Shown piece by piece: positions 1-36,719 of a DNA stretch of 64,000 nt. The notes under the pieces are model-generated. The model made no database searches and had not been told where the DNA came from. It saw only the letters and a list, made by a program, of their open reading frames with translations. The stretch is taken from assembly GCA_045638605.1 (NCBI GenBank), contig JAZUBS010000034.1, positions 30,112 to 94,111 on the forward strand, read 5' to 3'. This stretch comes from Candidatus Gastranaerophilaceae bacterium (GTDB lineage Bacteria; Cyanobacteriota; Vampirovibrionia; Gastranaerophilales; Gastranaerophilaceae). Made by a program: the position numbers and the translations under genes. The stretch's first letter is position 1. Each line of letters opens with the position of its first letter.

Positions 1-1018
1 TTTTTTCTTTATCCGTATTTTCATCTAAAGCAAATGCTTGTTGGGTCATTGTAGTAGTTTTATCTCCTGTTTTCTTAGACACTACACCATTTTCACCTCT
101 TGTGTAGGTCGTTTCTGTCGCTTCTGTCTTGCCTTGTTTTGGAGTATAAACTGTTCTTGAAAGGAACATATTGTTAGATGGGTTATATGTTGTTTTTCTT
201 TCAAAAGTATCATTATTTTCGACCGTGTCTTCGTAAACCGTTGTTGTTTTGTCCTCTCTATCAGTTTCAGTTATTGTTTTGCCATCTGCGGTTATTTTTA
301 CACTCGTACCGTCTTTGAAGTTAATAGTTGTCACTCCGTCTTCACCCGTTACAGGTGTACCTTCAATACGTTTGTCTGCATAATTATCATTTAATGTTTT
401 TTGAACTGCTTCAGGTAAGTTTTTATCCTTGCCTTTAGCATCTTTACCTATAGAGTGTCCGCTTACAGTTTGACCAAAAGTTGTTTTTCTTTTGTTTTTT
501 ACTGCTTCTGTTTCTGCACCAGCAGATAACTTATCAACATCTATACCTTTTAGCATGACACGCATAGCTTTTTCCGCGTCTCGTTTATTGTTTTCAATCT
601 GTTTTTGACGTTCTTTAAATTGGTTATGTTTGTCCCCGTATAAACCATTCCAATCATAGTCCATTGCATTATTTAATTCGTAAAACGCTTTTTTCTCCGC
701 CTCGGTGTTATCAACCTCTTCATCCTCACGTCCTTTGTATTTATCAGCGGATGCGGTCTTTTTGTTCTCACTTTGTATTGCTTTAATTGCTTTTCTCATT
801 TCGTCTTCAGAAAGCTCCCCATTTCCATCTCCACCTTTGGCCTTAGAATCCCAAATGGAGATACTTCTACTCCCTGAATTAGTTGCAGACATAATAGCCG
901 CATTAAATACAGAGGCTAATTGTGTGCCTTTTAATTCTTGTTTTATTGTAACCCCTGATGTTGGTTTCTGAGAATCTATTTTTCCGGGTTGTACTGCTCC
1001 AGGTACTTGTGTTGACAT
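1..1018 (-). CDS. hypothetical protein, C-terminus cut by the window edge (>=339 aa), with one EF-hand-like loop
   Basis: ATG at 1016-1018 on the minus strand. The frame stays open to position 1 (checked by translation). N-terminus is MSTQVPGAVQPGKIDSQK. The segment GGDGNGELSEDE fits the EF-hand loop pattern xxDGNGxLxxxE. No family recognised. Confidence 0.6.
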   Translation of the reverse strand, partial: MSTQVPGAVQPGKIDSQKPTSGVTIKQELKGTQLASVFNAAIMSATNSGSRSISIWDSKAKGGDGNGELSEDEMRKAIKAIQSENKKTASADKYKGREDEEVDNTEAEKKAFYELNNAMDYDWNGLYGDKHNQFKERQKQIENNKRDAEKAMRVMLKGIDVDKLSAGAETEAVKNKRKTTFGQTVSGHSIGKDAKGKDKNLPEAVQKTLNDNYADKRIEGTPVTGEDGVTTINFKDGTSVKITADGKTITETDREDKTTTVYEDTVENNDTFERKTTYNPSNNMFLSRTVYTPKQGKTEATETTYTRGENGVVSKKTGDKTTTMTQQAFALDENTDKEK

Positions 1019-1193
1019 ATTCTATCCTTTCTTAAATAAATTATATATATCAATAAAGTATTTATGATATAAATAATTGCTTTTTTGATATACAAATATT
1101 AAGATTTGTAAATACAAAATAAATTTACTTTCAAAAGACATTTTCAAAAACCGCACAATTATTGAGTTCTATGCATATATATTTGTTCGGAAC

Positions 1194-13560: not shown

Positions 13561-13632
13561 ACATTTATACGGACCTCATTTTAAATTTTACATTAATTTT
13601 TTAATAAAATTGTAAAGATTGTAAATTTTTAC

Positions 13633-13669
13633 GCAATTTATTTGCACAAATTGTTTTTATATAGATAAG
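13633..13669 (+). promoter_or_regulatory. conserved promoter-like motif GCAATTT-N18-TATATAGATAAG (copy B)
   Basis: Same motif with an identical 25-nt offset from the GCAATTT start to the TATATA start at 28306 and 34580. It ends 29 nt before the ATG at 13699. Confidence 0.55.
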
Positions 13670-13698
13670 AAGTGTTAGTAAATTAGTGTGGAGAAACC

Positions 13699-14355
13699 AT
13701 GTCAGTAGCAGCGGTTACATCAGCGACAGCATTAGCAACAGCAGCAACAACAATGACAAAATCATTATGCTTTGTGGGAACTAATACCGACAAATTCAAA
13801 GATGGTCAATATGGCCGTGGCTTAGTCGCTATTGCTCAAGCCGCTAAAGCTGGTGAAGCATTTGCTCAAACAGATTTAGCCGGTGCCAATAAATTGCAAG
13901 CTGGCGTAGACCATTTAGGAAAAGCTGCAAAGACATCAAAAACGCTTTCAGCTTGTGGCAAAACACTTAAATGGCTTAAAGCTAACATTAACCCACTTAT
14001 AACCGTTTGTGTCGGTGCCAAAATTATAACATCTAAAAACAAAGAAGAAGCTTTATTTGAAGATGGCACAGGTTTAGGTTGTATGTTTGCTGGAGAAAAA
14101 GCATATAAGTCTTTAGCAAAAACAAACACTGCACAAAACATATTTCTAAAAACAGAAAAATATGGAAACAAGATATTTAAAGGAGTCAAAGGGGGAAAAG
14201 CTGGGAAAATTTGTGCTGGAATAATTGAAGGCTTAGGATTTGTTGCAGCATCAATAGGAGCTTATGCAGGAGGGGCTAAACTTGGAGGCGCAGTGTACGA
14301 TATTAAACAAGAAGCTAAGTTAAAAAAACAAGCTAATTTTAGGGCAATCTGCTAG
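13699..14355 (+). CDS. hypothetical Ala/Gly/Lys-rich protein
   Basis: GGAG RBS, 218 aa, preceded by the shared promoter-like motif. No family recognised. Confidence 0.6.
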   Translation: MSVAAVTSATALATAATTMTKSLCFVGTNTDKFKDGQYGRGLVAIAQAAKAGEAFAQTDLAGANKLQAGVDHLGKAAKTSKTLSACGKTLKWLKANINPLITVCVGAKIITSKNKEEALFEDGTGLGCMFAGEKAYKSLAKTNTAQNIFLKTEKYGNKIFKGVKGGKAGKICAGIIEGLGFVAASIGAYAGGAKLGGAVYDIKQEAKLKKQANFRAIC

Positions 14356-15773: not shown

Positions 15774-16011
15774 AAATTTATTCTATTTCACATTGAAATA
15801 AAAATCAATTTAAAGAAGATTATTGTAAAAAATGGTTAGCATATTATTTGCAAAAAGGTGTTTTTATGATACATAAAGTATATAGTTTTTAAGATTAGAG
15901 ATTGCTTATTATTTGTAAATTTTTGTTACATGTTTTCAGCTAAAATAGCAAAGATAAATATTTACAAGGGTTTAGCATGATAGAAAAAAAACATGCGAAT
16001 GTGAGGTTAAG

Positions 16012-21660: not shown

Positions 21661-23037
21661 TTATTGACCTAAGTATACTAAACTTTGCATAACTTGGTTA
21701 GCGGTGTTAAATACCCTACTGTTTGCTTCAATAGCACGCTGAGCAATAATCATATCAGCGAATTGTTTTGTTAAATCAACGTTAGACGCTTCTAAACCAC
21801 CGCTTTTTATCCCGCCAAAAAGACTTGAGTTTGCAACGCCATAGATAGCTTCACCGGTATTAATCCCAATACTAAAAAGGTTGTTTCCTTCTTGCTCAAG
21901 ACCATCTGGATTCATAAAATGAGCTAATTGGATTTGTAGGTTTCCAACAGTTGCAACATCTTCACTAACTTTAATTTCTTTACCTCTCATTACAACACCT
22001 TCACTTGTTGTATATTGAAACTCCATTTGAGTAGTTCCATCAATTTGCATAACTCTTAATTTATCACCATTTGAATATGTTACTTCAATTGAACCATTTT
22101 CATAAATTTCATAACCAGAAGCAGAAAGGTCTAATTGTTTGTTAACACTAGGACTAAGCGAGCCTGTCCAGTCTAAAACTTTTGATTGAATAATACCATT
22201 TTTATCAGATTCTCCAACTTCCAACTCAGTTTCTGTTAAAAAGTTAGATGTTCCGGGAACCATATTCATTGAAGTTGCTGGAGCTTCACATTTTAGCTGG
22301 AATTTACCATCTACTACAGTGGCTACTACTTTATTATCCAAAGCATCCGGCGCAGCTGTATTAAAAGCGTTGTTAAAAGCATTACATATTTCATTAAGCG
22401 TTTTTGCGCCAGTAATATCAGTGGTTACTGAAAGTTCTTGAGTATTTCCTGCATCATCAGTATAATAAACCATTACACCAAAAGTACCTTTTGTAACTCC
22501 ATCAATACCGTTTAACTTAGTTATATCTTTAGAACCAGCATCAGCGTTAGGAACAACTTCAGAGTGCACAAGTTGAGGAATTCTAATCGGAAAATCATCA
22601 CTTGTTGTACCAAAAGAAGAATCAGTTCCTAAAACTTTGAAACCGTTAGGATTTACAAGAAATCCTTCTGTATCAACAGAAAAATTACCTGCTTTAGTAT
22701 ATCTCATATCACCACCTGGAGTCATTACCGTAAAAAATCCATTACCCTGAATCATCAAATCAGTAGTAATACCAGTTGATTGAAATGTACCAGTATTAAA
22801 ATTTTGTGAAATCTGAGATACTTGTGTACCATAACCAACTTCTTTAGGGTTAACACCACCACTTGTCGGAGTTGAAGGTGAACCTGCAGAAAGTTGTCCA
22901 TAAAAAACATCTGCAAAATTTACAGAAGATTCTTTAAACGCAACTGTGTTCATATTTGCAATGTTGTTTGAAACAACATTGATTTGTGTTTGTGCAGCTG
23001 ACATACCGCTTGCGGATGTGTACATTGCTTGTGACAT
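21661..23037 (-). CDS. flgE: flagellar hook protein FlgE
   Basis: N-terminal SGMSAAQTQINVVSNNIANMNT rod/hook signature and C-terminal DLTKQFADMIIAQRAIEANSRV. Confidence 0.88.
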   Translation of the reverse strand: MSQAMYTSASGMSAAQTQINVVSNNIANMNTVAFKESSVNFADVFYGQLSAGSPSTPTSGGVNPKEVGYGTQVSQISQNFNTGTFQSTGITTDLMIQGNGFFTVMTPGGDMRYTKAGNFSVDTEGFLVNPNGFKVLGTDSSFGTTSDDFPIRIPQLVHSEVVPNADAGSKDITKLNGIDGVTKGTFGVMVYYTDDAGNTQELSVTTDITGAKTLNEICNAFNNAFNTAAPDALDNKVVATVVDGKFQLKCEAPATSMNMVPGTSNFLTETELEVGESDKNGIIQSKVLDWTGSLSPSVNKQLDLSASGYEIYENGSIEVTYSNGDKLRVMQIDGTTQMEFQYTTSEGVVMRGKEIKVSEDVATVGNLQIQLAHFMNPDGLEQEGNNLFSIGINTGEAIYGVANSSLFGGIKSGGLEASNVDLTKQFADMIIAQRAIEANSRVFNTANQVMQSLVYLGQ

Positions 23038-23069
23038 TAATTTATTCCTCCCATATATATTTAATTATT

Positions 23070-23540
23070 TTATATTAATTTTTCATTTTTATTTTCATTA
23101 TTTGATGACGGATTTGCTTCAACACCAATCAGTAAATTAATCGGATATTCTTTATCTCCAATAACCAACTGCGCAGAACCGCCACTAAACGTAACTGCTG
23201 AAACCTCTCCTGATATTGTTCTTGTTGTATCATTAGGGTCAGTTAAAGTAACATACTCACCCATTAAAGAACAAGCCTGCGTAACTTGTGAACTTACATT
23301 TACTGCATCATTCAATTTTTGTAACTCACTAACTTGAGTAAACGCAGCCTGTTGTGCTAAAAACTCAGTATTGCCTACAGGTGCAAGTGGATCTTGATAT
23401 TTTAATTGTTCCATCATCAACATCAAGAATGCATCTTGTCCTAATTCTTGAGAAGCGCCATTTTTTGCTAATTCCTGACCTTTCATTATATTTGTGTTAC
23501 TTTGCATTTGCGTAACTTGATTTTGAATACTTGAACTCAT
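23070..23540 (-). CDS. flgD: flagellar hook assembly/capping protein FlgD
   Basis: LGQDAFLMLMMEQLKYQDPLAP motif. Position between fliK and flgE. Confidence 0.85.
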   Translation of the reverse strand: MSSSIQNQVTQMQSNTNIMKGQELAKNGASQELGQDAFLMLMMEQLKYQDPLAPVGNTEFLAQQAAFTQVSELQKLNDAVNVSSQVTQACSLMGEYVTLTDPNDTTRTISGEVSAVTFSGGSAQLVIGDKEYPINLLIGVEANPSSNNENKNEKLI

Positions 23541-23567
23541 TTATATTACCTCTTCTCCCATTTTTGT

Positions 23568-25370
23568 TTAAACCATAATACTTATTGAACCACTATTATT
23601 ATCTTTTATTTGTTCTGGTTCCTTTGTTTCTGTATTTTCAATTTCATTTACTATATTGCTGGAAGCTTCTTCATCTTGAAAATTGTTTTCAGAATTGAAA
23701 GCATGCGAATTTCCAGAATTTTTTTGTTGATTTTGGTTAGATTGATTAGCTGCTTCGCGATTAAATTGTTCTTGTTCAAATCCGAAACCTGCATTTTGAG
23801 ATGCTGTTGTTTCTTCAACTTTTACACTGATATTGTTAACATTTACACCTTGAGAAGCTAGCGTGTTTTTTAGACTCTCAACACTTTTATCTAATAAATC
23901 CTTCACCTGAGCTGTATCTGCAACTAGCTTAGCAACAATACCTTCTTTGGTTTGTGTAATTTCAACAGAAACTTTGCCTAATTGCTCTGGTTGTAAAATG
24001 ATATTAACTTTATTTACTATGTTGTCTTGCGGTAACGTTAATTTATTGTTAATTTGACTCAATATTTCATTATCAGATAATTGTTGAGTTTGTGGTTGTT
24101 GTATTAAACTTGTATTCGTTGTAGCTTTTAGATTAAAATCAACATTTGAATTAGTTGATAAAACATTTGTTGTATCCGTTAGATTTTGACCTAATTGAGT
24201 CAACTCAAAAGTTGTTGTTTCTGTAGTATCCACAGATGCATTTTGTAGAGACATTTTTATAATATTTTCTTGCGCATTTCCATGTTGATTTCCTGCCAAG
24301 TTAGAAAAACTTTGACCGTTCTCATTGTGCATTTTTTGCTTATCACTAGATACAACTGATTTCACAACAACATCTAAATCTTCAATAACTTCTTGAGAAA
24401 TTTTGGAAGTATCTTTTGTTTCAGTTTTTGTATTGACACTTAAATCATCAACGGCTAGCTCTACAACATCATCTGCTTTAACCAATGTATCATTGCTTAA
24501 ATCCTGGATATTTGTATCTTCAATTAACATATTTTCACTTGACTCTACATTCAAAATATTATTATCCATATTGAATAATTTTGTTTGTTTTAGACTATCA
24601 ATCGTATCGTTAGATTTTATAGCCAAATCCGTTTTATCTATTATTTTTTCTGTAGGTTTTAAATCACTTTTGATATCATCTTGACCTTGAACAGCTATTT
24701 GCGCCTCAATATTTTGTTTTTCCACCTTAGTTGTATCTGTTTTTACATCCAACACAAACTCGGTTTCTTTCTGAGAGCCATCATCAAGCATTGTGTCTTC
24801 TATATTAGATATTTCATCAATATTTTCTTTTGTTTCAATATCATACTCAGAATTTTCTTCATCATTATTAGTAAAAGATGAATGTCCCAATATTATATTA
24901 TTTAATATATTTTCAGATAATTTAATATTTGTATCCGCACTTAAATTTGAAGTTGTCTGACTTTTTTCAAATTCAACATCTTCCACCGCAACAACTGCTT
25001 CTTTGTTTGTTACATTTTGTTCAACATCTGCTTGAGTCTGTTCATCCACTGTGCTTATTTCATTATTTTCTATTATTTGATGTCCTTGATTTGACTCAAC
25101 ACGATTTGAACTAACATTACTTGTCTCAATTTGTTTTTTACTATCATGAAAAACTGTGTTTTTAGTAGTTCTTTTCTCAGCACCAATAAAAGACTCGCCA
25201 TTTTTTAATTGAGCAGCGTCTTTAGACACATATTTTGATTTAGCAGAATCCAAAAGATTAGAAAATTTTTCATTTCGACCATCATCTAATAAACTTTGAT
25301 TTGTTGTTTTAGACGCATCCATTCTTTTAGTAGTTGTTGGTATCAAATTTTGCAATATTTCTGTAGTCAT
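23568..25370 (-). CDS. fliK: flagellar hook-length control protein FliK (long N/D/E/T-rich spacer)
   Basis: C-terminal Flg_hook-like segment ILQPEQLGKVSVEITQTKEGIVAKLVADTAQVKDLL. Synteny fliJ-fliK-flgD-flgE. Confidence 0.72.
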   Translation of the reverse strand: MTTEILQNLIPTTTKRMDASKTTNQSLLDDGRNEKFSNLLDSAKSKYVSKDAAQLKNGESFIGAEKRTTKNTVFHDSKKQIETSNVSSNRVESNQGHQIIENNEISTVDEQTQADVEQNVTNKEAVVAVEDVEFEKSQTTSNLSADTNIKLSENILNNIILGHSSFTNNDEENSEYDIETKENIDEISNIEDTMLDDGSQKETEFVLDVKTDTTKVEKQNIEAQIAVQGQDDIKSDLKPTEKIIDKTDLAIKSNDTIDSLKQTKLFNMDNNILNVESSENMLIEDTNIQDLSNDTLVKADDVVELAVDDLSVNTKTETKDTSKISQEVIEDLDVVVKSVVSSDKQKMHNENGQSFSNLAGNQHGNAQENIIKMSLQNASVDTTETTTFELTQLGQNLTDTTNVLSTNSNVDFNLKATTNTSLIQQPQTQQLSDNEILSQINNKLTLPQDNIVNKVNIILQPEQLGKVSVEITQTKEGIVAKLVADTAQVKDLLDKSVESLKNTLASQGVNVNNISVKVEETTASQNAGFGFEQEQFNREAANQSNQNQQKNSGNSHAFNSENNFQDEEASSNIVNEIENTETKEPEQIKDNNSGSISIMV

Positions 25371-25378
25371 AATTTTCC

Positions 25379-25828
25379 TTAATTAGCCCTTATATATCGA
25401 ACAGTGGCTATCTCATCTAACTCTCGATTTTCATACGCAAGAAACTCTTTATAAAATCTTTCTTGGTCTTTTTCTTTCAGGTTTTCCAAAACTTTTTTCT
25501 CTTTTAAAGCCTCATTCACTTCTTCTCGTTTTGCCTGAACAAAGTATTCAATGTTTTTAATTTTTTCACGTTGTGCAATAATTTTTGTACCAAGATTTCC
25601 CCAGTAACCACGTGAATTTTGAATTTCAAACAGACTTTGTGGTGTATCCATTGAACTGATTTCAACGATTTTACTTTGCAAGGTGTTTTGCTCAATAATA
25701 AGCTGTTTTTCGATCTCAACTTCTTTGTTTAAGGTGTCAACAATTCGAGCAAGCTCCAATAGTTTTTGCTCTAATTTTTTCGCCTTGATATCAAGAACAG
25801 TCTGCAGTCTGAACTTGTATTTCTTCAA
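25379..25828 (-). CDS. fliJ: flagellar export chaperone FliJ
   Basis: 149-aa coiled-coil. N-terminus KFRLQTVLDIKAKK and C-terminal RELDEIA are typical of FliJ. Synteny supports the call. Confidence 0.65.
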   Translation of the reverse strand: MKKYKFRLQTVLDIKAKKLEQKLLELARIVDTLNKEVEIEKQLIIEQNTLQSKIVEISSMDTPQSLFEIQNSRGYWGNLGTKIIAQREKIKNIEYFVQAKREEVNEALKEKKVLENLKEKDQERFYKEFLAYENRELDEIATVRYIRAN

Positions 25829-28203: not shown

Positions 28204-28305
28204 AAATATCTCCTTTTCTATAATAGTATTATTATCTCAAAAATTTACTTTTTATTCAAATTCTTATCTCATATTTGAATAAATGTAAATAAATTTTATT
28301 TTTGC

Positions 28306-28342
28306 GCAATTTTTATTTTAAAAAACACTTTATATAAATAAG
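28306..28342 (+). promoter_or_regulatory. conserved promoter-like motif GCAATTT-N18-TATATAAATAAG (copy A)
   Basis: Identical architecture to 13633 and 34580. It ends 19 nt before the ATG at 28362. Confidence 0.55.
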
Positions 28343-28361
28343 TGGAAGTGGAGGCTGTTTT

Positions 28362-28724
28362 ATGACTAATACAGTGGATTTTTTTACTCAAGGTTTTTGT
28401 GAAAATTACGCAAGTAATTTTTTCAAAAATGGAGAATTACGACTCGATTTAGTTGAAAAATATGGTTCTAAGTTTGGATTATCAAAAAATGATTTAAAAG
28501 GTAATGAAACTATTTTTGAATTAGCACAAATTATTTTTGAAAAACAAATAAATAATAATTTTGGAGGAACAGACCCTATTAAAAAAGGAATTTCTCAAAA
28601 GAAAAACTCTATCTTCCTTGAAGATAAAAAAATTCAATATGGGACAAACGATAAATACTCATTAGATGTTGTTGGTCGAGAATTTTTCGACACAAAAAAT
28701 CGAAAACTACAAATAATAACTTAA
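28362..28724 (+). CDS. hypothetical protein (120 aa)
   Basis: GGAGG RBS, the shared promoter-like motif upstream and a terminator downstream. Confidence 0.6.
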   Translation: MTNTVDFFTQGFCENYASNFFKNGELRLDLVEKYGSKFGLSKNDLKGNETIFELAQIIFEKQINNNFGGTDPIKKGISQKKNSIFLEDKKIQYGTNDKYSLDVVGREFFDTKNRKLQIIT

Positions 28725-28788: not shown

Positions 28789-29150
28789 GTAGGGGGCGTC
28801 GTTTGACGCACCGCAAGAATGTAGAATTGGATGCAGTAATGGTAGGGTGCAATTTATTGCACCGCAAGGTCTTTTGCGCACCGCAAGGTCTTCACCGTCA
28901 TCCCGAACTCGTTTCGGGATTCCATGACGATGATGTCAACTAATTCAAGATTTTGGGATTAAATGGTTTTGTGGATTGTGCTCGGTTGGGATGTAGAAAC
29001 GAGTTTTGCCTGACAATTTTGATGAGGTTTGTTAGAGATGCCCAAACAAGTTCAGTATGACGATTTTGATGGGTCGGAGGGGAGTTTTAGTAGCAAATAG
29101 GTGAAATTTGTTGGGGTATATTTTGTGGTGCGTCAAACTACACACCCTAC
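28789..29150. repeat. composite repeat cluster bracketed by inverted REP-like units
   Basis: GTAGGGGGCGTCGTTTGACGCACC (28789-28812), GTAGGGTGCAATTTATTGCACC (28842-28863), direct GCACCGCAAGGTCTT x2 (28859-28873 and 28878-28892). Hairpin CGTCATCCCGAA..TTCGGGAT..ATGACG (28896-28929). AACAAGTTCAGTATGACG module (29044-29061, within 29040-29062). Closing unit GGTGCGTCAAACTACACACCCTAC (29127-29150). Confidence 0.75.
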
Positions 29151-34522: not shown

Positions 34523-34549
34523 AAAACCCCGATTAAATCGGGGTTTTTT
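34523..34549 (+). terminator. intrinsic terminator
   Basis: AAAACCCCGAT-taa-ATCGGGGTTTT followed by a T-run. Confidence 0.88.
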
Positions 34550-34579
34550 GTTGATTTTTAATTTTTGTAAATTAATTAG

Positions 34580-34616
34580 GCAATTTTTCCGCTAAAAATG
34601 TTTTTATATAAATAAG
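34580..34616 (+). promoter_or_regulatory. conserved promoter-like motif GCAATTT-N18-TATATAAATAAG (copy C)
   Basis: Identical spacing to copies A and B. It ends 15 nt before the ATG at 34632. Confidence 0.55.
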
Positions 34617-34631
34617 GTAGTTAGGGGTAAT

Positions 34632-36719
34632 ATGACTAATTTGAATTTACATAATTATAATAATCAATATCCAATCAATGCTTATCCGCAACAAATGGCA
34701 GCGTATACTCCTAATATGCAAGGCGTACCTCCTTCTATGCAAGGGTTGGATTATGATACATTAAAACTTCAAACGCAAGACAGTGCGCTTGGTCAAGCAA
34801 CAAGACACTACAGCACTGAAACCCCTGAAGCTACACTAAGCACAATGTTAAAAAGTTTAGCCTGCAGTTTATTAATGAGTATCGGATTTACCGGCGCAAC
34901 AAACTGGTTAATGAGTTCAAAAAAAATAGCTGATGGGGCTTCTAACGCGAAAGACTTCGCGCAAACAAGATTGTATAAAGCCGGACAAGTCCTTGATGAT
35001 AAAATTGGAGACTCAACAATTGTAAAAGGCGTACAAAACGCTGCAAATGGAATTAAAGGATTTTTCTCTAAAATTACGCCAGCACCATTAAAAGAAGCAT
35101 TTGCCAAAATGCAAACAGGAAGTATCGCTGTTTGGGACAAACAAGGTATGTTCCATTTAGGAAAAGGTGCAGAGGCGTTAAATGATTTTGTTGATGCAAC
35201 AACAAAAGTCCCATCTGACAAAATTACAGCATTATTAAAAAACAACGGTGCTGGACACAAAGTCGATGAAGTTTTAGATATTATTAATAAAGTTAAAAAA
35301 GGTTCTATTCGCGGCACTGCAGCGTTTGAAAAGTTGTACCCGATATTTGATAAAATGCCGGCAAAAGAATTAGCAAAACTCAATGAGCAGGGTTGGTTTG
35401 GCAAACTGCTTGGTTTGAAAACGGACTTAAGTAATGGCTTGCATAAAGCAAAATTCTTTAATGGTTCATTGAATAAAGCCCAAGGTCCCGTTGCGAAATT
35501 ATTCCAAAAAATGTCTGCCCTTGTTGGTGAAGCATCTGGAAACGGCGTTTTAGGCGGAAAAATGGCTCTATTTATGGGCTCATTTGGTTTAATGCAAGGC
35601 TTTACTGCTGCAGCCAAAGCAGAAAAAGGTGACAAGCTTAAAGCCTTTATGGAAGATTATATCGGATTTACATTAGGTTCTTATTTAATGTCATTCGTTG
35701 TTGGTACTTGGTTTAACAAATTCTTAGGTGTAACTGAATTAGGTATGGATGTCAATTCAAAAGCATTCAAAGATATTTGTACAAAATTAAAGCTAGACCC
35801 TAAAACAACCAAACGAGTCCAAGAAGCAGTAATTGCATTTAACAAAGAATTTAAAGATATTAGAAAAGCAAAAAAAGTTATAGAACAACTAAAATCTGGT
35901 AAAATTACAAAAGATGTTGCCTATAAACAAATCAAAAACTTAGTAGATACAAAAAATCTAAAAATTGATAATTTGTATGAATCAATTTCTCAATCACGAT
36001 TGATAGACAAAGTTGAAACTAGGATGGCAGAATTTGGAACCAAGGGAACTCTTCGTCAAGCAATAAAAAATTCTATGAAGTCTAAATTAACAATAAAAGA
36101 AGCCGGTATCGGTAAATACATTGTCCAAAAACCACTTGAATTAATGGGTAAGTTGTTCTCTGTTGGTCGTTATAATATGATGGATGGCAGCAAATTCTCA
36201 TTCAAGAGCATAAGAAAAGCCGCATCACGTTGGGGTGGAGGTATCGGTAGAATGATACTTGTAGGATTTGTTTTAGTTGAACCATTTAGAAAAGGTTTTG
36301 TAAAACTTTCTCACGCTATTTTTGGTAAACCTAAAAACTCAACATTAGATGATGGTAAAAAAACGAAGACTGAAGAATTACCAAACCAACAACTTGCTCA
36401 ACTTCAGCAAATGGCACAACAGCAACAAACACCTCAACCACAACAAATTCAACCCGCACAACAACCTATGGCAGCTGCTCCAATGAACAATTCTCAGCCA
36501 ATTGCATCTGCGCCAATAAATGCACAAACTCAAAACAAAACACCAACGATTGAAGATGAAATAGCAGCAACGGAATTAAAACGTTCTTATATTCCATCTG
36601 CTCAACCCTCTCAGTTTGCGCTTCAAAAAGATCCAAGAGAAGCAGAAGTTGAAAATGCAATCTTAAAAGCACAAAAAGCTGAAAATGCTGCTCAAAACTT
36701 TTTATCTAGCGGATTTTAA
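34632..36719 (+). CDS. large hypothetical membrane-associated protein with Q/P-rich C-terminal region
   Basis: 695 aa, GGGG RBS, hydrophobic segments (LACSLLMSIGF, GFTLGSYLMSFVVGTWF, ILVGFVLV). No family recognised. Confidence 0.65.
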   Translation: MTNLNLHNYNNQYPINAYPQQMAAYTPNMQGVPPSMQGLDYDTLKLQTQDSALGQATRHYSTETPEATLSTMLKSLACSLLMSIGFTGATNWLMSSKKIADGASNAKDFAQTRLYKAGQVLDDKIGDSTIVKGVQNAANGIKGFFSKITPAPLKEAFAKMQTGSIAVWDKQGMFHLGKGAEALNDFVDATTKVPSDKITALLKNNGAGHKVDEVLDIINKVKKGSIRGTAAFEKLYPIFDKMPAKELAKLNEQGWFGKLLGLKTDLSNGLHKAKFFNGSLNKAQGPVAKLFQKMSALVGEASGNGVLGGKMALFMGSFGLMQGFTAAAKAEKGDKLKAFMEDYIGFTLGSYLMSFVVGTWFNKFLGVTELGMDVNSKAFKDICTKLKLDPKTTKRVQEAVIAFNKEFKDIRKAKKVIEQLKSGKITKDVAYKQIKNLVDTKNLKIDNLYESISQSRLIDKVETRMAEFGTKGTLRQAIKNSMKSKLTIKEAGIGKYIVQKPLELMGKLFSVGRYNMMDGSKFSFKSIRKAASRWGGGIGRMILVGFVLVEPFRKGFVKLSHAIFGKPKNSTLDDGKKTKTEELPNQQLAQLQQMAQQQQTPQPQQIQPAQQPMAAAPMNNSQPIASAPINAQTQNKTPTIEDEIAATELKRSYIPSAQPSQFALQKDPREAEVENAILKAQKAENAAQNFLSSGF

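Follow-up and report, generated by a model that had tools for sequence, protein, structure and literature searches.

A putative lineage-specific promoter class preceding orphan genes in Gastranaerophilales

Results

Genomic loci of the three motif copies

The stretch of DNA analysed here (hereafter, the window) comprises 64,000 nucleotides of contig JAZUBS010000034.1 of a Candidatus Gastranaerophilaceae bacterium (assembly GCA_045638605.1, positions 30,112 to 94,111) and has a G+C content of about 32%. It carries three copies of the bipartite element GCAATTT-N18-TATATA[AG]ATAAG, all on the plus strand and each located a short distance upstream of an orphan gene. Copy 1 (13633..13669) is composed of GCAATTT, ATTTGCACAAATTGTTTT and TATATAGATAAG and reads GCAATTTATTTGCACAAATTGTTTTTATATAGATAAG in full. 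Copy 2 (28306..28342) is composed of GCAATTT, TTATTTTAAAAAACACTT and TATATAAATAAG, giving GCAATTTTTATTTTAAAAAACACTTTATATAAATAAG, and copy 3 (34580..34616) of GCAATTT, TTCCGCTAAAAATGTTTT and TATATAAATAAG, giving GCAATTTTTCCGCTAAAAATGTTTTTATATAAATAAG. An earlier note on this DNA, made from the letters alone, had listed these three copies; a pattern search reproduced their coordinates exactly, and likewise the distances of 29, 19 and 15 nt from the end of the motif to the start codons at 13699, 28362 and 34632. No further matches appeared in the window when up to two mismatches were allowed. The chance expectation for the pattern is low, with a mean of 0.01 copies in 100 dinucleotide shuffles of the window. 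GCAATTT alone occurs 46 times, and the 12-mer TATATARATAAG only three times, in every case 25 nt 3' of a GCAATTT.

The three downstream genes encode a 218-aa protein rich in Ala, Gly and Lys (gene 1, 13699..14355, +), a 120-aa protein (gene 2, 28362..28724, +) and a 695-aa protein with Q/N/P-rich ends and several hydrophobic segments (gene 3, 34632..36719, +). All three are orphans lacking a Pfam match, with only three to four relatives each among 5.8 billion proteins (three for gene 1). The transcription units look monocistronic: gene 1 is followed by a convergent gene, and the open reading frame (ORF) following gene 2 lies on the opposite strand. The gene preceding copy 3 ends in an intrinsic terminator (34523..34547, +; an 11-bp stem followed by a T-run) located 33 nt 5' of the motif, so that copy 3 begins a separate transcription unit. 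Between pdxJ and gene 1, no sigma-70-like match was found on the plus strand. Downstream of gene 2, GC-rich repeated strings (gcaccgcaaggtc...) resembling REP-type elements were observed at 28849-28900, in a spacer that is otherwise AT-rich.

Motif consensus and spacing

When the genomes of 185,579 species, one per species, were scanned for the exact pattern, at least 119 stretches matched, nearly all from the Gastranaerophilales/Melainabacteria clade. The 123 distinct copies collected are also conserved at positions that the search did not fix. T8 is found in 101 copies and T9 in 90, the A-tract at motif positions 16-20 is conserved, and C23 (77 copies; T in 37), T24 (118) and T25 (120) precede the TATATA block. 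The A-tract and T-tract of the spacer, which the earlier note had pointed out in the three window copies, are thus genuine features of the family. Toward the 3' end, position 38 is a purine in 79% of the copies and A41 occurs in 85 of 123.

In related loci totalling 0.95 Mb, a softened matrix gave 180 matches exceeding 12 bits, compared with 3 for the reversed matrix. In the 56 additional sites obtained in this way, the 3' ATAAG is the variable part, with ATACAGGGG and ATGTAAGGG as frequent alternatives. The spacing was also recovered from the opposite direction. When the hexamers lying 22 nt 5' of 1,297 non-seed [CT]TTTATA sites were counted, GCAATT ranked first with 29 occurrences, and the next hexamers reached at most 7 each. 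At every other distance between 10 and 39 nt, GCAATT occurs at most 3 times. These non-seed sites also keep T30, A31, A33, T34 and A35. The core of the motif is GCAATT-N16-(C/T)TTTATAtaaATA with fixed spacing.

GCAATT is separated from TTTATA (motif positions 24-29) by exactly 17 bp, which is the standard geometry of -35 and -10 elements with their 16-18 bp spacer. The block at the -10 position consists of (C/T)TTTATA followed by TAAATA(AG). The earlier note had judged the upstream element to be at the wrong distance and of the wrong sequence for a canonical -35 hexamer; the objection to the sequence holds, and the one to the distance falls away once the spacing is measured to TTTATA. In copy 1, the -35-like GCAATT and the -10-like TTTATA correspond to 13633-13638 and 13656-13661.

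Scored with the matrix, copies 1, 2 and 3 reach 35.1, 41.1 and 45.3 bits, respectively. The region 15839..15878 (+), which the earlier note had taken for a looser relative, does not belong to the family. With the matrix built from the family it scores between -11 and -46 bits in every register; GCATAT replaces GCAATT with a one-base offset, and the element lies 133 nt from the start codon, compared with 14-31 nt in most true members. On the minus strand, 25 nt 5' of an orphan ORF of at least 339 aa that runs off the window (2..1018, -), the sequence GCAATTA-N15-CTTTATTGATATATA (1044..1080, -) may be a weak fourth copy. Its spacing is correct and the ATACTTTAT hallmark is present; the matrix score is 11 bits, inside the range attained by shuffled windows.

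Conservation at orthologous loci

Orthologues of the three window genes were identified by protein alone, without use of the motif. GCAATT, the spacing and TTTATA are kept upstream of the orthologues of all three genes, one locus (L201) being degenerate. The earlier note had named loss of GCAATT and its spacing at orthologous promoters as an observation that would speak against its proposal, and both are retained. The orthologue of gene 1 (L209; 56% aa identity, syntenic with a DUF4127 gene) carries the motif with one mismatch and identical spacing, and its spacer differs from that of copy 1. For gene 2, three orthologues with 68-73% aa identity (L211, L212, L213) keep an upstream TGTAAA, GCAATT, the A-tract and TTTATATAAAT in register; the leader is also retained, while the remaining intergenic region has diverged. 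One orthologue of gene 3 (L200, on the same contig as L155) has the exact motif. In a second (L202, 46% aa identity) the motif reads GCAATTT-N15-CTTTATA with an altered 3' part, and in the degenerate L201 locus (42%) it reads GTCAATT ... TTTTTATTAAAG.

Position relative to genes and predicted transcription start

A same-strand ORF lies downstream of 111 of 124 copies; in most cases its start codon follows the motif after 14-31 nt, most often after 22 nt. The sequence directly 3' of the motif is purine- and G-rich, and GTTAGG is enriched 48-fold. Transcription is predicted to start at motif positions 36-41, within a few bases of the motif end. Where exactly it would fall depends on how the -10 block is read: with TTTATA as -12 to -7, the predicted start is A36/G37, with TATATA it is G38, and with a T4-like TATAAATA it is A41. 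In the window, the predicted starts are approximately 13668-13673 for copy 1, 28341-28346 for copy 2 and 34615-34620 for copy 3.

Some exact copies have no ORF within about 140 nt (L084, L172, L187, L127, L142 and two copies in L149). In L084, L172 and L187 the putatively transcribed region is itself conserved (GCAAGG...AATGGTGGTAACATA...CTTAGGAGG), which suggests a long leader or a small RNA expressed from the same promoter.

Comparison with known promoter classes

Housekeeping promoters of the clade are of the canonical type. Clade tRNA genes and the tRNA-Cys gene of the window are preceded by near-consensus TTGACA-N17-TATAAT promoters. When 95-nt regions were scored against the 12 positions of TTGACA-N16-18-TATAAT, 67% of the tRNA upstream regions matched at least 9 and 38% at least 10 positions. 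The corresponding values are 14% and 0% for the motif loci and 12% and 2% for random DNA from the same loci. Conversely, the motif was not found in any of 24 clade tRNA upstream regions. Its -35-positioned block, GCAATT, is not TTGACA-like, and no TAnnnT, the canonical -10 arrangement with A at the second and T at the sixth position, is present in consensus positions 24-38. The only TAnnnT of the -10 zone, T34-T39, occurs in 34% of the copies as compared with 29% at random. Region 2 of sigma-70-type factors captures (flips out) the A at -11 and the T at -7. Two RpoD-like genes in the related loci share 61-63% identity with E. coli RpoD across regions 2-4; judged by these sequences, the primary sigma factor of the clade is an ordinary one.

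A perfect sigma-28/FliA consensus site, TAAAGTTTTTAAAAATTATGCCGATA (TAAA-N15-GCCGATA; 1470-1495, +), is located about 90 nt 5' of a gene (1588-2121) for a 177-aa protein with no Pfam match. To judge from this site, a second, different alternative promoter class is present in the same window. The motif shares with sigma-28 (FliA/SigD) class 3 promoters a bipartite, strictly spaced and highly conserved architecture. Sigma-28 regulons also resemble the genes studied here in consisting of dispersed monocistronic genes, many of them encoding proteins without signal peptides, and in coexisting with canonical housekeeping promoters. The sequences, however, are unrelated: CCGATA is found in 0 of 120 motif loci, none of which fits the sigma-28 pattern TAAA-N15-GCCGATAA. 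Given the sigma-28 site elsewhere in the window and the canonical tRNA promoters, the motif would represent a third promoter class.

Further known systems were compared. Late promoters of phage T4 (gp55) carry TATAAATA at -10 and have no -35 element. Consensus positions 28-35 of the motif are exactly TATAAATA, and the conserved A41 stands where a T4-type start would fall. The motif differs from T4 late promoters in its conserved -35-positioned block and its upstream boxes (see below); moreover, its genes are chromosomal and scattered among housekeeping genes, and viral contigs offer no convincing instance of the exact pattern. Synechocystis SigF, a group 3 sigma factor, recognises TAGGC at -32 and GGTAA at -12 (PMC2532724), which shows that cyanobacteria can have a non-canonical promoter, recognised with high stringency, for surface and motility proteins. 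TAGGCAATTT can be read in some motif copies, window copy 3 among them. Assignment to SigF was rejected: TAGGC occurs in 5 and GGTAA in 9 of 120 copies, and where both are present they are about 39 nt apart instead of about 20 nt. An NtcA/CRP-type site was rejected as well, as GTA-N8-TAC is found in 3 of 120 copies compared with 1% at random, and the inverted pairs of upstream boxes are 12-13 nt apart from centre to centre, unlike the spacing of NtcA sites.

RpaB-like boxes upstream of the motif

In Synechocystis PCC 6803 and Synechococcus PCC 7942, the response regulator RpaB binds the HLR1 element, which consists of (G/T)TTACA(T/A)(T/A) repeats 2 nt apart; at RpaB-activated promoters, HLR1 is centred between -66 and -45 from the start (PMC6525291). 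Similar boxes accompany the motif. TTACA/TAACA strings cluster at -31/-30, -21/-20 and -11/-10 from G1, and the complement TGTAA clusters at -33, -23/-22 and -13/-12. With up to 3 mismatches, the HLR1 18-mer is found in 50 of 122 copies (6 of them perfect) as compared with 4.5% of random positions; column-permuted motifs occur in a mean of 12 of 122 copies. The 18-mer peaks at offsets -32/-31 and -22/-21 from G1. Octamers in the same orientation are 10 bp apart (15 forward-forward pairs with spacing 10), and both orientations occur. With a predicted start at motif positions 37-38, the HLR1 centres would fall near -60 and -50, within the activating range.

The window copies carry such boxes on the minus strand. 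Copy 1 is preceded by two perfect HLR1-type octamers, ATTGTAAA (13609-13616 and 13618-13625, -; read TTTACAAT), which are 9 bp apart and start 24 and 15 nt 5' of G1; both are conserved in the orthologous promoter (L209). A single octamer, AATGTAAA (28282..28289, -), starts 24 nt 5' of G1 of copy 2, and its TGTAAA is invariant in the four-way alignment of gene 2 orthologues. Copy 3 is preceded by TTTGTAAA (34564..34571, -), which starts 16 nt 5' of G1.

Across the family, the likeness to RpaB/HLR1 promoters concerns the octamer, the 10-bp register, the predicted position and the use of both strands, as in Synechocystis. Nothing like the core GCAATT-N17-TTTATAtaaATA, in contrast, is described for RpaB targets; the organisms considered here are non-photosynthetic, and their boxes form arrays of one to three instead of a single pair. 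Homologues of RpaB, RpaA and NblS have been reported to be encoded in Melainabacteria, with unknown role (PMC3787301, PMC4040986). In the related loci (0.95 Mb), tblastn retrieved one hybrid histidine kinase and no OmpR-type regulator.

Proteins encoded downstream of the motif

The 96 proteins encoded downstream of pattern-selected copies fall into 57 unrelated clusters. Even among family members of only 27-72% identity the motif is retained, with divergent spacers and flanks. Its presence before unrelated families, and its persistence amid diverged spacers and flanks, argue for selection and against duplication. The few Pfam matches comprise CHAP, GH108, SLT, phage-type lysozyme, peptidoglycan-binding, TPS, transglutaminase-like, ADP-ribosyltransferase, outer-membrane beta-barrel, HD and ABC1. 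A signal-peptide-like N-terminus is present in 1 of the 96 proteins, compared with 78 of 646 background ORFs, and the first 25 residues contain 3.3 charged residues compared with 5.4 in the background. From these sequence features, the proteins possibly act outside the cell and leave it by a non-Sec route.

The window also contains a flagellar operon, fliJ-fliK-flgD-flgE (21661-25828, -; Pfam), which sits among housekeeping genes. The organism has thus retained some or all of the flagellar export and hook machinery, and these flagellar export genes make a flagellar exit route conceivable. A D-T-V-E/S-I/F-S string, often following F-x-G, was observed about 40-55 residues from the N-terminus of a subset of otherwise unrelated proteins, encoded at L089, L098, L104, L124, L162 and L165. 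As a marker of the regulon this DTVEIS-like tag was discarded, since 4-5 of 96 proteins compared with 0-1 of 646 background ORFs are too few.

Taxonomic assignment of the motif-bearing contigs

Gastranaerophilales are uncultured bacteria common in human and animal guts. The window carries ordinary chromosomal genes, including pdxJ, dxs, fabD, obg, secY and those for ribosomal protein S5 and a proton-pumping pyrophosphatase. The closest relatives of its PdxJ come from a gut metagenome-assembled genome (MAG; 76% identity) and from Candidatus Gastranaerophilales (68%), and the DNA sequencing runs containing the window region are animal gut and faecal metagenomes. These observations place the organism among the gut melainabacteria (class Vampirovibrionia), in or near the order Gastranaerophilales.

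Among the 80 matches listed by the genome scan, 48 were labelled Gastranaerophilales, Melainabacteria, gut 'cyanobacterium', Vampirovibrio, Caenarcanum, Limenecus or Spyradomonas, 18 were unlabelled gut or rumen MAGs and 14 had other labels. Five of these 14 (Zhongshania, Prevotellaceae, Bacillales, Virgibacillus and Ruminococcaceae) are without flanking hallmarks and appear chance-like. The remaining nine carry the hallmarks; most of their contigs are probably mis-binned or mislabelled. Contigs with hallmarks were seen in MAGs labelled Muribaculaceae, Gammaproteobacteria, Methanomethylophilaceae or Methanobacteriaceae (L104, L107, L111, L122, L133, L151, L155 and L160). L151 ('Methanobacteriaceae') is near-identical to L108 ('Melainabacteria'), and L155 ('Muribaculaceae') encodes an orthologue of the 695-aa protein of the window. 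An origin or use of the motif in phages was rejected: six exact matches were found in viral contigs, five of them lacking the CTT/TTT hallmark, and since they lie in DNA of 22-30% G+C all six look chance-like.

Discussion

The three elements are probably promoters of a lineage-specific class that is found throughout Gastranaerophilales, with a core read by a non-housekeeping sigma factor and a regulon of orphan genes. A shared regulon, based either on an alternative sigma factor or on an activator site combined with an unusual -10 element, had been proposed in the earlier note. This proposal is strengthened by the clade-wide occurrence of the motif, its orientation toward genes, its strict spacing and its retention at orthologues, and further by its distinctness from the sigma-A promoters of clade tRNA genes and from the sigma-28 site of the window.

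Under the reading preferred here, a sigma factor would contact GCAATT(T) at the -35 position and (C/T)TTTATA across a 17-bp spacer containing the T-tract and the A-tract. Transcription would start at motif positions 36-41 and yield a leader of 15-30 nt carrying the ribosome-binding site. A non-housekeeping sigma factor most likely reads the core, because the -10 block lacks TAnnnT and the housekeeping promoters of the clade are canonical. A response regulator occupying the phased TTACA/TGTAA octamers would probably assist initiation, and the obvious candidate for it is RpaB. The set under control would consist of dispersed, fast-evolving and mostly unannotated proteins without signal peptides.

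Several points weigh against this interpretation. Only two primary RpoD-like genes, and no alternative sigma gene, were found by tblastn in the related loci (0.95 Mb). Promoter activity and start site are inferred, and in the single metatranscriptome containing the organism (gut, X25) the three window genes are covered in scraps; the runs containing a relative from mouse gut are DNA. Most of the copies behind the family logo had been picked out with the exact pattern, and the set free of this bias comprises only 38 sites. As to the boxes, the window copies have reverse-strand HLR1 octamers only, none of them with a textbook HLR1 pair, and the TTACA core resembles a -35 hexamer, such that some boxes may belong to divergent promoters.

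The shortage of a suitable sigma gene in the sampled loci would be accounted for if the motif were an activator-dependent promoter used by the housekeeping sigma factor, an alternative that we regard as somewhat unlikely but worth serious attention. GCAATT would then be a transcription factor site or a third, variant half-site of the regulator that binds the boxes. With this factor standing in for the absent -35 contact, the AT-rich TATATAAATA would serve sigma-A as a poor -10 element. Activator-dependent promoters of cyanobacteria have no -35 consensus, the phased upstream boxes are at activator positions, and aGGCAATT has 5 of 8 positions in common with the HLR1 unit TTACAATT. However, GCAATT is 8-9 bp and not 10 bp from the nearest box and is therefore out of register. 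No hexamer of the -10 zone combines A at -11 with T at -7, whereas clade tRNA promoters have both. Sequence kept this tightly along 35 bp, with the spacer fixed at 17 bp, is moreover a typical trait of sigma-specific promoters. The phased A- and T-tracts could also be viewed as curved, UP-element-like DNA of a constitutive housekeeping promoter variant of exceptional strength that marks highly expressed genes and not a regulon, in keeping with AT-richness and with short leaders that are purine-rich at their start. This is very unlikely given that the tRNA genes of the clade use near-consensus TTGACA/TATAAT promoters and lack the motif, that the genes served are lineage-specific orphans and not housekeeping genes, and that no motif locus reaches 10 of 12 positions in the sigma-70 scan.

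Copy 1 contains CAATTT-N8-AAATTG, a perfect 6-bp inverted repeat centred at 11.5, and most copies show a T-tract facing an A-tract, as would be expected if the motif were a repressor operator, or a dimer site with dyad symmetry, that overlaps a promoter not yet recognised. Over the 123 copies, however, the symmetry shrinks to T5-9 against A16-20; G1, C2 and C23 have no symmetric partners and copy 2 has no dyad at all, which leaves this explanation with very little credit. That the similarity arose by chance in AT-rich DNA or reflects a small dispersed repeat (mobile DNA) with no role in transcription is practically negligible as an explanation. TATA-like strings are indeed common in a genome of this G+C content, and the earlier note had itself allowed for the possibility that the motif would prove no more frequent before genes than AT-richness predicts. 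This possibility is not borne out: the motif far exceeds its shuffled expectation, spacers and flanks are unrelated between copies while blocks and spacing are fixed, and the element points at a gene 14-31 nt away and is conserved at orthologues across species.

No published description of the motif was found in the literature, and we know of no publication on transcription control in Gastranaerophilales. The promoter class permits a co-regulated set of genes, almost all of unknown function, to be listed from sequence and separated from housekeeping and sigma-28 targets. The hallmark motif can, in addition, flag melainabacterial contigs in wrongly labelled MAG bins. The RpaB-like boxes offer a testable answer to the question, raised in 2013, of what RpaB and NblS do in relatives without photosystems.

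A more far-reaching idea, which we consider rather doubtful, is that the promoter class is the main output of an orphan NblS-RpaB pair with a dedicated sigma factor and switches on effector-like proteins that are exported by a reduced flagellar type III apparatus. The set would amount to several dozen to about 100 proteins by rough extrapolation. These could be fast-evolving proteins without signal peptides, among them peptidoglycan hydrolases, ADP-ribosyltransferase-like and transglutaminase-like proteins and many orphans. If true, this would reveal an ancestral, pre-photosynthetic role of RpaB and a new secretion regulon in a widespread lineage of gut bacteria.

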